Shown here one piece after another: positions 40,139 to 48,334 of a DNA stretch of 64,000 nt (the first letter of the stretch is position 1; every line of letters begins with the position of its first letter). Where the stretch lies: IMG/VR virus record IMGVR_UViG_3300011912_000001; one strand, given 5' to 3'. The stretch is from an uncultured virus (IMG/VR IMGVR_UViG_3300011912_000001) (Duplodnaviria > Heunggongvirae > Uroviricota > Caudoviricetes). A program made the translations under genes and the position numbers. A model generated the notes under the pieces. The model searched no databases and had not been told where the DNA came from. It saw only the letters and a list, made by a program, of their open reading frames with translations.

Positions 40139-40177
40139 GTAAAGAACTCCTCCTAATATCAAATAGAAATCTATAGA

Positions 40178-40235
40178 GAAGGGGCGTAGCCCCCGGCTAT
40201 ATAAAAAGTATAGCGTGTTTCCTAGAAACTGACAA
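40178..40235 (-). promoter_or_regulatory. sigmaA promoter followed by AGCCG-hairpin motif, copy 3
   Basis: TTGTCA-17nt-TATACT, then after 8 nt AGCCG-GGGGC-TAC-GCCCC. Confidence 0.7.
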
Positions 40236-42707: not shown

Positions 42708-42739
42708 GAGGAGTCTCCTTTTAATATAAGTATAGGTAT

Positions 42740-42797
42740 TGTTTTCTACTGGAATTGAACCAGTCGGCGGTGCCGGAACCTTCAAAAAACAGAAAAC
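42740..42797 (-). ncRNA. Shrunken tRNA-like element (58 nt)
   Basis: Acceptor GUUUUCU/AGAAAAC, T arm ACUGG-UUCAAUU-CCAGU, mini hairpin CGGC-ACC-GCCG, no D stem. Confidence 0.6.
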
Positions 42798-42799
42798 AT

Positions 42800-43105
42800 C
42801 CCCATCTATTCAGCCTTGAAGCTGTCTATAGAGTCAATAAATGAACACTCTCTTGGGCTTAGAACCAAGGATTTTATCGAACTTTCACCTGTGACCGTTT
42901 AACTTTCAAGAGTCTGAGGTTTGAGTCGTGAGCGTTGAGCGTTTACCTTTTAACGTTAAGCTTTGAGTATATGCTCTAGAGTCTCCAGCTAGAGCTTTTA
43001 TTCTGTCGCACTCTCTGCATCTGAGGCAGTGAGCTTTACGCCAGAACCCATTGTCATATGAGTGTATTTGATATACTCTTTTTCTTCAGCGTATCCGCTA
43101 AGGTA
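42800..43105 (-). ncRNA. Putative structured RNA with about 12 heptamer-like repeats
   Basis: ORF-free; AAAGCUU/AACGCUC-type units at 42879-42970 flanked by hairpins. Confidence 0.6.
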
Positions 43106-43404
43106 GGTTATCTATATCGTTAGATAGGACGCATTTAGTTCATAGACATTCGAATAGATAGGGATGATACTTTCATTCTCTTTAGATAATATAAAGGAAC
43201 GAAATGGAATATGCAAGTGGGAGCCTTCCCATCTCCCGTTGTGAAAATGGAACAACAAAGCAATAGTCAAAGAGCTTGTTGTGGGAAGGTTGTGCATTAC
43301 AAGTGGTGAACGTGTAATGTCAACAATGTGGCGGGGGAAACCCCATGATAAAAAGAGTATTCACCGCCGGTCACCCGACGGCATAGTGCTCGTGTTGTAT
43401 ATAT

Positions 43405-43980: not shown

Positions 43981-44607
43981 TCAGACCTCAATCAGCGTTT
44001 GCGTGTTGCTTTCAGACAAGGAGTAATCGACTTCGGCTTTAAACTGTTCGATGTCATCTTGCAGTTTTTTAATCATAGCACGAATGTTAGCTGGGTCAAG
44101 GAGCTTCACTTCATGGCGCTTCATGAACGCCTCTTCCGCTTCCGCCACTTCTTCCGGCTTATGTGTGCCTTCTTTTGGGAATGACACTTCGATATGCTTT
44201 TGCGTACGGTCACGGAGGTCAGCTTCTAAGCGAAGTTTTTCCCGGTCCGCATTCATCAACTGATTACGCAAGTTGACGAGCAACTGTTCATCGTACTCAA
44301 TGCCAGTGTCACGGCGGTCGATGGCTTCTGCCACTGTCATTTCAACGCCAGCAATCCGAACAAGAGTCACAGCATTACTTGCAATGATAGCAGATTTAAT
44401 GACCTTACGGCGTTCAATTAAATCATTGACTTTGTCGACGCTTGCTTTCGCTTCGTTTTCGAACACTTCAATCGATGGATAGTGGGCAGGTGCCTTCTCT
44501 CCTGAAGTAACGGCAACAAAGCGTTCAGCGACCGCAACCGTAATGCGTTTATCAAGAAGCTTGAGTTCAGCAAGTGCGCGGTGAATCGACATAGAAGTTT
44601 TAGTCAT
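43981..44607 (-). CDS. DIP1984-like helical protein B
   Basis: MSIHRALAELKLLDKRI, SNAVTLV..EMTVAEAI, VDYSLSESNTQTLIEV. Confidence 0.7.
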   Translation of the reverse strand: MTKTSMSIHRALAELKLLDKRITVAVAERFVAVTSGEKAPAHYPSIEVFENEAKASVDKVNDLIERRKVIKSAIIASNAVTLVRIAGVEMTVAEAIDRRDTGIEYDEQLLVNLRNQLMNADREKLRLEADLRDRTQKHIEVSFPKEGTHKPEEVAEAEEAFMKRHEVKLLDPANIRAMIKKLQDDIEQFKAEVDYSLSESNTQTLIEV

Positions 44608-44649
44608 GAGTAATATCTCCTTTTGTAAGTAGAGTAATATAAAAGTAAA

Positions 44650-45140
44650 TGGAAGATGGCCCTCGCTACGCCTTAGGGCGATGGCATTCCTTGTATTGTT
44701 TTCCCTCCTGCTAGAACCGTAGCGCTAGACAGAAGCCGCAAGACCGGCACGGCTCTCTTCCCTAAGTCGTGAGTACCACATACATGTTTGCTATGTAGTG
44801 ACCGGAGTTTATGTCGTCCGGTGACGGAAGGCTCTCGTAGTCCAACTGGTGATACATACCGTCACAACACGATATGCAAACTTTGCCCTGACACGCCCGT
44901 CCCATAACACGACGCATCACATTATGGAAGTAGAACCCTCAGGTGTCTACCACGATTAGGTAGGATAGCCAGAGCAAAGAAGCAGTTTTCAGACATGCTC
45001 AGGTCTAAGCAATTCGATTTTAGAAGATGCATCTTCCTCCACCGTGGTACGCAAGCGCCCACTACAATCCATGTGAAGCAAAAGAAAAAGAACCATCTGA
45101 TGCATGCAAAGAAAGTTTCTAAACACTACAGATGATTCCA
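44650..45140 (-). ncRNA. Hairpin-rich noncoding segment
   Basis: ORF-free, GC-rich, at least 8 consecutive hairpins and a small pseudoknot. Confidence 0.5.
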
Positions 45141-45449: not shown

Positions 45450-45526
45450 TGGTCGGAAGAACAGGATTTGAACCTGTGACCATCTGAGCTTCAATCAGAC
45501 ACTCTACCAGACTGAGTTACCTTCCG
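45450..45526 (-). tRNA. tRNA-Phe(GAA)
   Basis: Cloverleaf, loop TTGAAGC, CCA end; C1-G72 acceptor. Confidence 0.85.
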
Positions 45527-45598
45527 ATTACGAAACAACCTACGAAAGAGGCCGTTTCTGCCTAACAAGTAGGCGCATGGTACGCGTACCAATAATGT

Positions 45599-45693
45599 GA
45601 GTGCGACATGGACAATCTCCAGCCGGGATAGTCCACAGTATATTTTATCAACGGGTTTTAACCGTTGCCGCTGGGCCGGTCCACCTAGCACTC
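45599..45693 (-). ncRNA. Unrecognised structured RNA, copy A (UGGACCGGCCC motif)
   Basis: Closing stem GAGUGC/GCACUC; homologous to 46072-46159. Confidence 0.6.
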
Positions 45694-45705
45694 GTAGGCT
45701 TCATG

Positions 45706-45778
45706 TGGACCCTGTAGGACTCGAACCTACGACTACTCCGTTATGAGCAGAGCTTTCTACCAACTGAATTAAGGGTCC
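45706..45778 (-). tRNA. tRNA(CAT), probably Ile2; CCA not encoded
   Basis: Loop CTCATAA; GGACCCT acceptor typical of Bacillales Ile2. Confidence 0.85.
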
Positions 45779-45834
45779 ATAATCTTGCGTAAGCCGACCA
45801 AAGCACACCGCAAGAGACGTAAGAACAAATAAGA

Positions 45835-45906
45835 TGCCTGTGGATAGGATTCGAACCTACATGTTGTCGCCTTTGCAACCGCTCTACCATTTGAGGTACC
45901 ACAGGC
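45835..45906 (-). ncRNA. tRNA-like RNA with tetraloop (AAAG) in place of the anticodon loop
   Basis: 8-bp acceptor, D loop with GG, canonical T arm, GUUGC/GCGAC stem. Confidence 0.75.
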
Positions 45907-45915
45907 ATAATAAGG

Positions 45916-45989
45916 TATCTGGAAGCAGGACTCGAACCTGCACGCACAGCCGTCGCCGTAGCTCTACCAGCTTAAGACTTATTCCAGAT
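45916..45989 (-). ncRNA. tRNA-like RNA with tetraloop (GACG) in place of the anticodon loop
   Basis: AUCUGGAA/UUCCAGAU acceptor, canonical T arm, ACGGC/GCUGU stem. Confidence 0.75.
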
Positions 45990-45990
45990 A

Positions 45991-46065
45991 TGGTTGCTCT
46001 TGGAAGAGTTGAACTTCCGACCTCCCACTTATCAGGTGGGTGCTCTGCCACTGAGCTAAAGAGCA
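45991..46065 (-). tRNA. tRNA-Ile(GAT)
   Basis: Cloverleaf, loop CTGATAA, CCA end. Confidence 0.92.
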
Positions 46066-46071
46066 ATGTTT

Positions 46072-46159
46072 GAGTACGTCATGACATTCTCATGAGGGAT
46101 GCTCCCGTGTATTATTTCTCACTGAAATCAGTGCCGCCGGGCCGGTCCAAGTAGTACTC
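46072..46159 (-). ncRNA. Unrecognised structured RNA, copy B (UGGACCGGCCC motif)
   Basis: Closing stem GAGUAC/GUACUC; homologous to 45599-45693. Confidence 0.6.
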
Positions 46160-46470
46160 CTTACTCTTCGATACCTCGAATGCCTTCGGGGTTCTTTAAG
46201 AGTAAAGTATACAAAAATAAAAAGCAAGTATAAAATACAAAAAGTTTTAAAAAAATATAATGGAGCGTTTTTTTACATGAAAGGCTCCCAAAACATGACT
46301 AGATGGTACGTGCGTAGCAACACGTCCGTTTGTAAAGGACAAGCGAAAAACCTTTTTGGTAAAGACCAAGGGAAACGAACCCCTGTGGTTCGGCAAGAGT
46401 CAGGCTTCATCCTAAAAAGGAATCAATTCCCTATCACGCCTACTAAGTCGCCAGACATATTTACCTCATG

Positions 46471-46555
46471 CGCCAAGGAAAGGACTTGAACCTTTGTTTC
46501 CGGTAGCTCATTGCAAAGAACGAGCGGCACCGTACTCATCACCTGATTCCAAAGC
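46471..46555 (-). ncRNA. tRNA-like element with extended central arm and imperfect acceptor
   Basis: T arm AAAGG-UUCAAGU-CCUUU; UCAGGUGA shared with 46599-46766. Confidence 0.5.
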
Positions 46556-46598
46556 ATTATAACGGGGCGTTTTATAAAGTAAAAAGGCCCCCAAACAC

Positions 46599-46766
46599 TG
46601 TTCTTCAGAGGAATCGAACCTCTGCATGCTCACAATGATACTACTTGCTTCTACAGCTTACTAAGAGAAAGTATTGGCTGTTAAGTAACGCATTGCCCAA
46701 CATACCTCACTCGTTTTCAGACTACAAAGTTTTCGTCAAAATTGTTCCAAGTCACCTGAGAAGAAC
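46599..46766 (-). ncRNA. Expanded tRNA-like element (168 nt)
   Basis: Acceptor GUUCUUC/GAAGAAC, T arm AGAGG-UUCGAUU-CCUCU, large insert. Confidence 0.7.
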
Positions 46767-46813
46767 ATGATAAAAGAGAGGCGTTTCTGTAAAGTGGAAA
46801 GGCCTCCAAACAC

Positions 46814-46969
46814 TGTCCTGATAAGGAATTGCACCTGTAAACAATCTCTTCGACTGCCCGTTTCAACATACTAAGGTTCCAAGCGTTCGGGCGTAAAGCC
46901 GGTACTAACGTTCCCCCGTTCGATATACTTTGGTGCTTGTGTACTAGGAATGTCTCACTAGAGCAGAAC
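46814..46969 (-). ncRNA. Expanded tRNA-like element (156 nt)
   Basis: GUUCUG/CAGGAC, T-like arm AGG-UGCAAUU-CCU, repeated YUAGUA. Confidence 0.6.
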
Positions 46970-47023
46970 ATGATAAGAAAGAAGAGACATTTGGTTTTAA
47001 GTCAAAAGGTCTCCACAAAAGAC

Positions 47024-47111
47024 TGCTCTTTAAAGGAGTTGCACCTTTAGAAATGCTTATTGATATCCCTATTAGGCCCACAAACTCACATTTCCTACTA
47101 AGAAGAAGAAC
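47024..47111 (-). ncRNA. tRNA-like element without D stem (88 nt)
   Basis: GUUCUU/AAGAGC, GAAAUG/CAUUUC arm, T arm AAAGG-UGCAACU-CCUUU. Confidence 0.65.
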
Positions 47112-47187
47112 ATGATAAAAATGGGACGTTGGATTAACGTGTAAGGTCCCCAAGCACGTGTACATGTTTAAAACCAGTACAATCGGT

Positions 47188-47259
47188 TGCCTTCTGTAGG
47201 ATTCGAACCTACACGGCCGGGGTAGTGCCCCGGAATTCTACCACTTAAATTAAGAAGAC
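47188..47259 (-). ncRNA. tRNA-like cloverleaf with non-canonical loop GCACUAC
   Basis: No U33, G32-C38 can pair; no CCA; runs into a pseudoknot. Confidence 0.75.
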
Positions 47260-47336
47260 AGAATAAGAATAAAACATGACGTTTCTTTTACGTGGAAAGG
47301 TCACCAAAGCACGATGCATTTTAAGTCGGCATAGAC

Positions 47337-47408
47337 TGGTTCCCTCAGGATTCGAACCTGCAATCTTCTCGTATCCACGAGACACTTTGCCAATTAAGCT
47401 AAAGAACC
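47337..47408 (-). ncRNA. tRNA-like cloverleaf with 4-6-nt loop (U)GGAU(A)
   Basis: UCUCG/CGAGA stem; no CCA; runs into a pseudoknot. Confidence 0.75.
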
Positions 47409-47488
47409 ATGATAAAATTGAAGCGTTTTTTTAGACATGGGAAGGCTTCCAAACCCATGATGCTATGTTTTAAGTCGAGCATGCGGAC

Positions 47489-47561
47489 TGTCCTTGGTAG
47501 GATTCGAACCTACGTCTCCGCCCGGGCATGGGCAGTGTCCTAACCGCTTGACCACAAGAAC
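47489..47561 (-). ncRNA. tRNA-like cloverleaf with 6-8-nt loop (C)AUGCCC(G)
   Basis: CUGCC/GGCGG stem; no CCA; runs into a pseudoknot. Confidence 0.75.
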
Positions 47562-47586
47562 ATGATTTTTAATTTAATCATTTAAA

Positions 47587-47670
47587 GAAGGGACGTAGTC
47601 CCGGCTTTCTTTCAGTTTTTAAAAGGTTTATTGGAACAACCATTAAAAAAGAGGGGGCGTAGCCCCGGCT
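47587..47670 (-). promoter_or_regulatory. Two AGCCG-hairpin motifs (47587-47606, 47651-47670) upstream of the RNA array
   Basis: GGAC-GTA-GTCC-CGGCT and GGGC-GTA-GCCC-CGGCT. Confidence 0.65.
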
Positions 47671-47681
47671 CTCTTTATTTT

Positions 47682-48272: not shown

Positions 48273-48308
48273 AATATAGCCTCCTTAAAGTAAAATAACC
48301 AAAAAAAA

Positions 48309-48328
48309 GAAGCCGCGTAGCGGCGGCT
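48309..48328 (-). promoter_or_regulatory. AGCCG-hairpin motif (terminator-like context)
   Basis: Identical to copy 1, followed by a U tract on the minus strand. Confidence 0.6.
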
Positions 48329-48334
48329 TTCTTT

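Follow-up and report, generated by a model that had tools for sequence, protein, structure and literature searches.

Twin RNAs in a phage tRNA cluster

Why would a phage keep two versions of one structured RNA between its tRNA genes, and what might that RNA do? The question arises in a 64,000-nucleotide (64-kb) stretch of viral DNA, which we refer to as the window. Its genes include those for a holin, an amidase, a primase, RecA, RNR, a sigma factor and RuvC (60 of the 85 ORFs of at least 120 aa were scanned). The gene order resembles that of Bacillus phage KLEB27-3, and the best matches to RecA and the sigma factor come from pBtic235-type plasmids and from phages WH1 and Edson. Judged by these sequence comparisons, the window belongs to a 237-kb phage of the pBtic235/KLEB27-3 kind. 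Because the closest named relatives of its endolysin are Exiguobacterium proteins, we take Exiguobacterium to be the probable host.

The first-pass annotation of the region had described twin copies of an unrecognised RNA among the tRNAs. Both are indeed present, and their surroundings are as follows:

45599-45693, minus strand: copy A, 95 nt
46072-46159, minus strand: copy B, 88 nt
45705-45778, minus strand: tRNA with CAT anticodon, its 3' end about 12 nt before copy A
45450-45526, minus strand: tRNA-Phe (GAA), the next tRNA after copy A
45991-46065, minus strand: tRNA-Ile (GAT), directly after copy B
46206-46234, minus strand: weak promoter-like site (9/12) ahead of copy B

Copy B is the first element after the promoter-like site and ends 6 nt before tRNA-Ile; such sites are no more frequent in the copies' region than expected by chance (12 found, against 9.1 +/- 3.1 in shuffles). 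The RNA does go unrecognised, as neither copy matches an Rfam 15 family at the gathering score or at E<=10. A 16-nt core common to both occurs twice in the window when up to three mismatches are allowed, where 0.19 occurrences are expected, and 1 of 100 shuffles reached two. The folding z-scores are -3.05 for copy A and -1.52 for copy B.

Comparison of the two copies bears out part of the structure first proposed for them. The compensatory change claimed for the closing stem is there, as one double change in a 6-bp stem, but two rows do not make it significant: 71 of 500 shuffles gave as high a count of A-versus-B double changes. The inner hairpin does differ in sequence while remaining paired (two double changes), although that of copy B possibly has just 5 bp and a 4-nt loop. 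The core, said to be invariant, has 11 nt identical in A and B but varies elsewhere: its first U is a C in relatives from runs X7 and X18, and nt 17 is a C in all four of the host homologues described below, of which three or four also carry the compensating change at nt 24. Copy A had also been placed inside a larger 7-bp stem. Both arms exist (45698-45692 and 45545-45539), the 5' arm overlapping the closing stem by 2 nt, but this stem lies outside the conserved element, because the spacer holding its 3' arm is not kept in relatives; it is replaced in X7 and X18, and six of its letters are left in one low-depth contig of X20, which is probably a DNA run.

The relatives also bear on whether the copies have a function at all. 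In contigs from X7 and X18 copy A is retained, and other sequence takes the place of the two spacers that flank it; over 45598-45733 these contigs differ from the window at seven or eight positions, of which three or four are listed inside copy A and four are not placed. Copy B is covered in parts by contigs from X7, X18 and X20. The cluster holds many decayed tRNA-like units, as would be expected if the copies, too, were functionless leftovers from host mobile elements. We consider this highly improbable: the RNA unit is precisely retained twice without terminator or gene, its changes preserve pairs, and it is conserved in relatives whose neighbouring spacers and upstream tRNA region differ.

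Several other elements lie in or near this cluster. An array of roughly seven tRNA-like units occupies 46300-47600 (minus strand); the units are alike in their acceptor ends and T-arms, differ greatly in the middle, and each adjoin a repeated hairpin of variable stem and conserved loop (repeat families D4, D6, D9 and D10); three of the units score as tRNAs, two of these without a clear anticodon, and the array has no other Rfam match. Between the copies are two degenerate tRNA-like genes (45836-45905 and 45917-45989, minus strand; 35 and 18 bits in Rfam, not called by ARAGORN), the former of which is replaced in run X18. A mini tRNA-like element at 42735-42796 (minus strand) has a 7-bp acceptor-like stem and a T-arm with just 26 nt between; it matches the A/B model weakly (E 1.9 and 0.24) and is probably unrelated. 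The stretches 44630-45140 and 42790-43400 (minus strand; 500-600 nt) are non-coding, with several hairpins and no Rfam match, and terminator-like hairpins with a common loop (family D5) recur at 40175-40203, 47584-47676 and 48306-48334. The protein encoded at 43981-44607 (minus strand) has no Pfam family; of 43 genomes from the family of the probable host, 11 encode homologues about 50% identical to it, and it has matches in 737 phage records. Elsewhere, the tRNA clusters of pAD3 and of a pBtic235-type plasmid contain elements of about 180 nt (L126:7533-7706 and L310:6535-6715) with tRNA-like ends and a large insert, which are similar to each other by eye and are not called by ARAGORN.

Homologues and a candidate pseudoknot

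A covariance model of the two copies, the check suggested along with the original annotation, did find homologues. This model (R1) matches in 4 of 21 genomes of the Exiguobacterium genus, at E-values from 1e-13 to 2e-3 and with 27-65 bits on the host copies; the genus was chosen via one of its genomes, G509, in which a protein known under the name of Exiguobacterium is matched exactly. A second model, of six sequences (A, B and the four host copies), returned the same four genomes from 43 of the family. With these homologues and the covariation described below, the phage RNA is a real RNA family that has not been catalogued, as the first-pass annotation had supposed.

Other routes returned nothing. 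Exact-pattern scans gave four chance matches in viral contigs, with no true homologue among the matches listed, GC-rich chance matches among those listed for genome contigs, and a single match in metagenome contigs, which lies inside a gene and is no homologue; all 248 core matches that were scored are chance matches. These scans missed the homologues because their patterns were too strict, the host copies differing inside the core. There was no blastn match of the copies to phages and plasmids, and R1 matched neither five related phage or phage-plasmid records nor 42 fetched loci, and in 100 loci nothing beyond weak matches selected by pattern. Locus searches anchored on proteins were empty.

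For the six aligned RNAs, the structure predicted by RNAalifold includes the closing stem, a short hairpin of 3 bp within the core, a variable hairpin, P2, and another hairpin, P4; of its 21 pairs, 8 have changes in both partners. When 17 named pairs were scored, 97% of cells were paired and 6 of the 17 pairs were changed on both sides; none of 500 shuffles scored as high and slid controls did not come close, these being controls that ignore kinship. The counts lean on few events, since there are five distinct RNA sequences outside P2. One of the changed pairs, 17-24, is G-C in A and B and C-G in three or four of the four host copies. The first two pairs of P2 are fixed, the rest of it differing between homologues both in length and in sequence.

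We noticed that the loop of the core hairpin (nt 19-23) is complementary to six nucleotides at the end of an A-rich linker, giving 5 of 5 pairs with one bulge in all six sequences. The partner in copy B pairs entirely by Watson-Crick pairs and is the sole such site among 58 downstream 6-mers. The pairing also distinguishes two subtypes of the RNA, one resembling A and one resembling B: A-type loops form five pairs with A-type segments and three or four with B-type segments, B-type loops form five Watson-Crick pairs with their own segment only, and no other subtype's segment gives any loop more Watson-Crick pairs than its own. The RNA is thus probably an H-type pseudoknot whose long loop contains P2 and the A-rich linker. 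The parts of this model are:

45668-45679, minus strand: copy A, candidate pseudoknot stem 1 (nt 15-17 paired to nt 24-26) plus the 6-nt loop it encloses; the 'core' of the first-pass annotation
45639-45667, minus strand: copy A, variable hairpin P2 and A-rich linker, the proposed long loop
45633-45638, minus strand: copy A, segment nt 56-61, proposed partner of loop nt 19-23 (5 of 5 pairs, nt 59 bulged)
45609-45621, minus strand: copy A, hairpin P4, with two of three counted pairs changed on both sides
46134-46145, minus strand: copy B, candidate pseudoknot stem 1 and loop
46104-46109, minus strand: copy B, segment nt 51-56, proposed partner of loop nt 19-23 (nt 52 bulged)

All four listed changes in the relatives' copy A fall at sites that are unpaired in this model, one of them at the bulged nt 59 (X7 and X18). 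In the second pseudoknot stem the bulge is placed differently in the two subtypes, with three pairs in a common register. A-type RNAs have a second possible loop partner, in P4, and copy A by itself reaches its lowest energy as a rod, with core and P4 paired to each other (-35.7 kcal/mol, against -23.7 for the nested part of the shared fold). Two further hairpins were set aside: RNAalifold's P3, which has no double changes and one break and overlaps the pseudoknot partner, and nt 11-13 with 20-22, which is weaker and is broken in X7 and X18.

The core had been pictured as a single-stranded site of recognition or catalysis. That picture finds no support in the comparative model, which has the core as a hairpin with covarying pairs and with a loop that is itself paired to sequence further downstream, and the suggested search for target complementarity was likewise negative, as no complement of at least 9 nt to the core was found elsewhere in the window.

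A role within the tRNA cluster itself is a separate matter. Small stable RNAs of this kind have a precedent in RNA C and RNA D of phage T4, which sit in the tRNA region. Since both of our copies adjoin tRNA genes and are kept while spacers change, the RNA might be such an RNA, or a catalytic or tRNA-processing one. T4 does have small RNAs of this sort (PMC9697503), to which we saw no sequence relation; here, unlike there, host homologues come with a telling gene context, and none of the four is near a tRNA. No Rfam ribozyme family matches, and the closing stem joins both ends of the RNA, unlike in the HDV-like theta ribozymes. Altogether, we regard this explanation as very improbable. HDV-like ribozymes have a nested-pseudoknot topology, and a theta/HDV-like ribozyme was among the candidates rejected. 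As described in PMC10879173, the first nucleotide of a theta ribozyme lies within 5 nt of the tRNA 3' end; copy A starts about 12 nt after a tRNA, and copy B and the host copies follow none. Likenesses to Twister, T-box, Y RNA and attC were dropped because the defining elements are absent.

PBECR4 genes and the RNAs ahead of them

What the host homologues do adjoin is a gene. Three of the four loci (L441, L442 and L443) have the same order: a promoter-like site, the RNA, a GC hairpin with a U-run, and a gene of about 190 codons that starts about 80 nt after the RNA (promoters were read by eye, terminators by script). The gene product belongs to the Pfam family PBECR4 (PF18813), scoring 51-56 bits against a gathering cut-off of 27. 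PBECR4 occurs in 3 of the 43 family genomes, in all three directly behind the RNA and terminator. Because L442 and L443 are near-identical, with RNAs identical outside P2, we count two independent RNA-PBECR4 pairings. The fourth locus (L444:1501-1650, plus strand) has an orphan RNA with a promoter-like site and a terminator-like hairpin, in a genome without PBECR4; it may be a decoy carried on a plasmid, or what is left of a unit whose toxin gene is gone. Each of the four loci has a single RNA unit with no tandem repeats (longest exact repeat 8-9 nt).

The PBECR4 protein matches 256 cluster representatives at E<=0.001, and His56, in an HLxGLH motif, is nearly invariant among 102 aligned sequences. 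Its predicted structure (pLDDT 88.7) gives BrnT, the colicin D tRNase and RelE-type RNases as best structural matches, all weak (Z 3.4, rmsd 3.3-4.3, 75-77 aligned). The host gene product is a predicted BECR-type ribonuclease. PBECR domains have been described as predicted RNases of phages and mobile elements that carry such a histidine, and the host gene is a solo PBECR4 with that near-invariant residue; the accessible text of that description names no RNA partner (PMC5512222). The toxins had no match in PADLOC or NCBIfam and none at E<=10 among PDB sequences. Pfam assigns PBECR4 alone, and the fold list, headed by BECR RNases and with Z<=3.4 throughout, is without ToxN, CptN or TenpN entries, which does not count against kinship with these families. 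We found no link between PBECR4 and an RNA antitoxin in the non-subscription literature searched, and the terms 'type III' and 'RNA antitoxin' do not occur in the available text of a 2026 BECR preprint. The unit may already have a name, for instance a lactococcal one, because a Lactococcus lactis genome used as a control has one PBECR4 match.

The arrangement resembles a type III toxin-antitoxin operon. ToxN, the toxin of ToxIN, is MazF/Kid-like. Such an operon, as outlined in PMC13682666 and PMC3401426, consists of a promoter, RNA repeats, an intrinsic terminator and a toxin gene, and the toxin families still number three in the 2026 paper among these (PMC13682666). The type III layout of promoter, RNA, terminator and predicted toxin gene is present at three of the four host loci. 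Like ToxIN, CptIN and TenpIN, the host unit joins a non-coding, probably pseudoknotted RNA to a predicted RNase gene; it differs in its protein, a PBECR4 of BECR type, and in its RNA, which in Exiguobacterium is one unit of about 90 nt with a terminal closing stem and two extra hairpins. We do not file it in any of the three families, because the toxin family differs and these loci have no tandem repeats. Taken together, the homologues favour binding of a protein, as an antitoxin encoded beside PBECR4, over catalysis or a part in tRNA processing, and we think it likely that the host RNA is an antitoxin. RNA-toxin pairing outside the three classical families has a parallel in AbiF/AbiFr, reportedly an RNA-regulated HEPN toxin; our Rfam scans gave no match to the AbiF RNA.

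A place between a promoter-like site and a terminator is also where a riboswitch would sit, and copy A has two possible folds. The host RNA could thus be a cis-acting attenuator, or an autoregulatory protein-binding site, that sets read-through into PBECR4, with the phage copies titrating the regulator or being passengers. Several features speak against this: the terminator starts downstream of the full closing stem, the orphan copy has its own terminator and no downstream gene on that strand, and the phage copies are kept with neither terminator nor gene. We judge a leader role to be rather unlikely.

The layout is a general one for PBECR4 genes. Among 331 sampled Bacilli genomes, 16 contain PBECR4, as do 11 plasmid records, 7 of which were fetched. 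A terminator-like site lies within 190 nt upstream of 22 of 25 PBECR4 matches; for control regions the figure is 5 of 19, with ten of the 19 being orthologues that do not count as independent. The three matches without one are two domains inside frames of 1,480-1,630 aa and a broken gene. Exact upstream repeats of 17-55 nt are present in 7 of the 25 PBECR4 regions and in none of the 19 controls, and tandem RNA repeats before these seven are a further likeness to ToxIN, CptIN and TenpIN. A generic scan for pseudoknots failed to tell PBECR4 regions (18 of 25) from controls (13 of 19), and its rules miss the candidate knot of the Exiguobacterium RNA itself.

The RNAs ahead of most of these genes are recognised by neither of our models. 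R1 missed all 22 other PBECR4 loci, and the six-sequence model, run over 108 kb, matched twice, each time a short way ahead of a Paenibacillus PBECR4 match (E 0.017 and 0.16); we treat these two as weak relatives supported by position. An Rfam scan of 16 PBECR4 loci returned one Bacilli-1 motif above cut-off and one drum motif below it. This suggests an antitoxin-like role for Bacilli-1 and drum. Together with the DUF3800 RNA motifs, they resemble our RNA in being structured, terminator-ended and beside one protein gene (PMC5737381; RF02958, RF02931); the Exiguobacterium/phage RNA matches neither the drum nor the Bacilli-1 model.

Individual loci add some detail. Directly upstream of PBECR4, the Bacilli-1 match lies at L472:1319-1377 and the sub-threshold drum match at L464:1348-1444. 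Seven loci (L460, L463, L465, L466, L467, L478 and L479) have tandem structured units spaced 53-135 nt upstream of PBECR4; several of these show loop-downstream complementarity by eye, and there was no Rfam match in the six scanned. A small plasmid deposited under Salmonella (L474, Inc13 replicon) carries a PBECR4 unit whose upstream RNA is closely like those of the Bacillaceae plasmids L475 and L476.

That different RNA folds, among them Bacilli-1 and possibly drum, precede different PBECR4 genes could be expected if the RNA were a cofactor or guide of a PBECR4 ribonucleoprotein, which the phage copies would redirect or jam. Terminator-ended motifs tied to nearby protein genes are known, and a cofactor or guide role was left open for the drum and DUF3800 RNAs (as discussed in PMC5737381). 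In our RNA, there is no variable segment besides the P2 hairpin that could act as a guide, and the core has no complement of at least 9 nt elsewhere in the window; we regard this role as quite improbable.

The broadest form of the antitoxin reading, for which we would put the chances a little below even, is that the solo PBECR4 genes of Bacilli are a widespread RNA-antitoxin family in which a RelE/colicin-D-type toxin is paired, clade by clade, with its own pseudoknotted RNA, the phage carrying two specificity-matched antidotes that would neutralise both clades of its host genus.

Phage copies as candidate decoys

The two phage copies correspond to the two host subtypes. Copy A resembles the RNA ahead of the L441-type PBECR4 gene and the orphan L444, whereas copy B resembles the RNA ahead of the L442/L443-type gene. 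In the 3' half, A is identical to L441 at 39 of 46 positions and to L444 at 37 of 46, compared with 29 of 46 for A and B, while B is closest to L442/L443 (36 of 44). A tree of the 3' half splits A-type from B-type at 97/96, and a longer alignment does so at 89/97, in each case from five distinct rows with the P2 interior left out. The matching toxins of the two subtypes are 28% identical. In the 5' core the relationship is the opposite: A and B share 19 of 22 positions, and either shares at most 17 of 22 with any host copy. Two separate, clean captures would not leave such closeness, which would be accounted for by conversion of one phage copy by the other or by a mosaic origin.

No PBECR4 gene lies beside either copy or among the 60 of 85 window ORFs scanned, so that 'toxin-free' here refers to the 64-kb window of a 237-kb phage. 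The remaining sequence might hold a PBECR4 gene of the phage's own, which the copies would serve as part of a phage-plasmid addiction module; or the copies, again through RNA inhibiting the protein, might just allow the prophage to coexist with resident plasmids. Neither would involve an anti-defence role. The closest relatives of the phage do include phage-plasmids, and PBECR4 units do occur on plasmids (the 11 records above). Against a toxin located elsewhere, RNA, terminator and gene are adjacent in every complete host unit, and two subtypes would require two toxins outside the window. We therefore hold this explanation to be unlikely.

Our preferred reading, to which we would give somewhat better than even chances, is that the host RNA is the antitoxin of a type III-like unit and that the phage copies are toxin-free decoy mimics of it, placed in a stable-RNA operon. 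The host promoter would drive an excess of the roughly 90-nt pseudoknotted RNA, ending at the intrinsic terminator, and read-through of the terminator would yield the PBECR4 ribonuclease, which the RNA would bind and silence. If infection or induction cut transcription of the host antitoxin, the nuclease would be freed, and the unit might in this way act against phages. The phage, with one toxin-free copy per host subtype in its tRNA operon, would make these RNAs in bulk; they would be trimmed out along with the tRNAs, be protected by the closing stem, and keep the resident toxin bound when the host's own antitoxin is lost. More speculatively, if PBECR4 cuts tRNA as colicin D does, antidotes beside spare tRNAs would be doubly useful.

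The element is thus best read as working like a type III antitoxin mimic, yet one outside ToxIN, CptIN and TenpIN. The examples we know of in which an RNA counters a type III system come mainly from escape mutants of phage phiTE obtained in the laboratory. In that case of phage mimicry, the pseudo-ToxI of phiTE, which comes without the toxin, is, like our copies, homologous to an antitoxin RNA; as reported in PMC3475682, it needed expansion or recombination in the escape mutants, whereas the putative mimics here are two full-length, subtype-matched copies in wild sequence, within a tRNA operon and with no toxin gene in the 64-kb window.

If this reading is correct, type III would gain a toxin of a different fold, a BECR-type nuclease inhibited by RNA, and a function would be offered for an uncharacterised Pfam family and for orphan RNA motifs such as Bacilli-1. 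The two RNA-toxin pairs give crossed predictions. The keeping of subtype-matched copies in a natural phage lineage would mean that RNA counter-defence is selected in the wild, and unexplained small RNAs of phage tRNA clusters could be anti-defence decoys.
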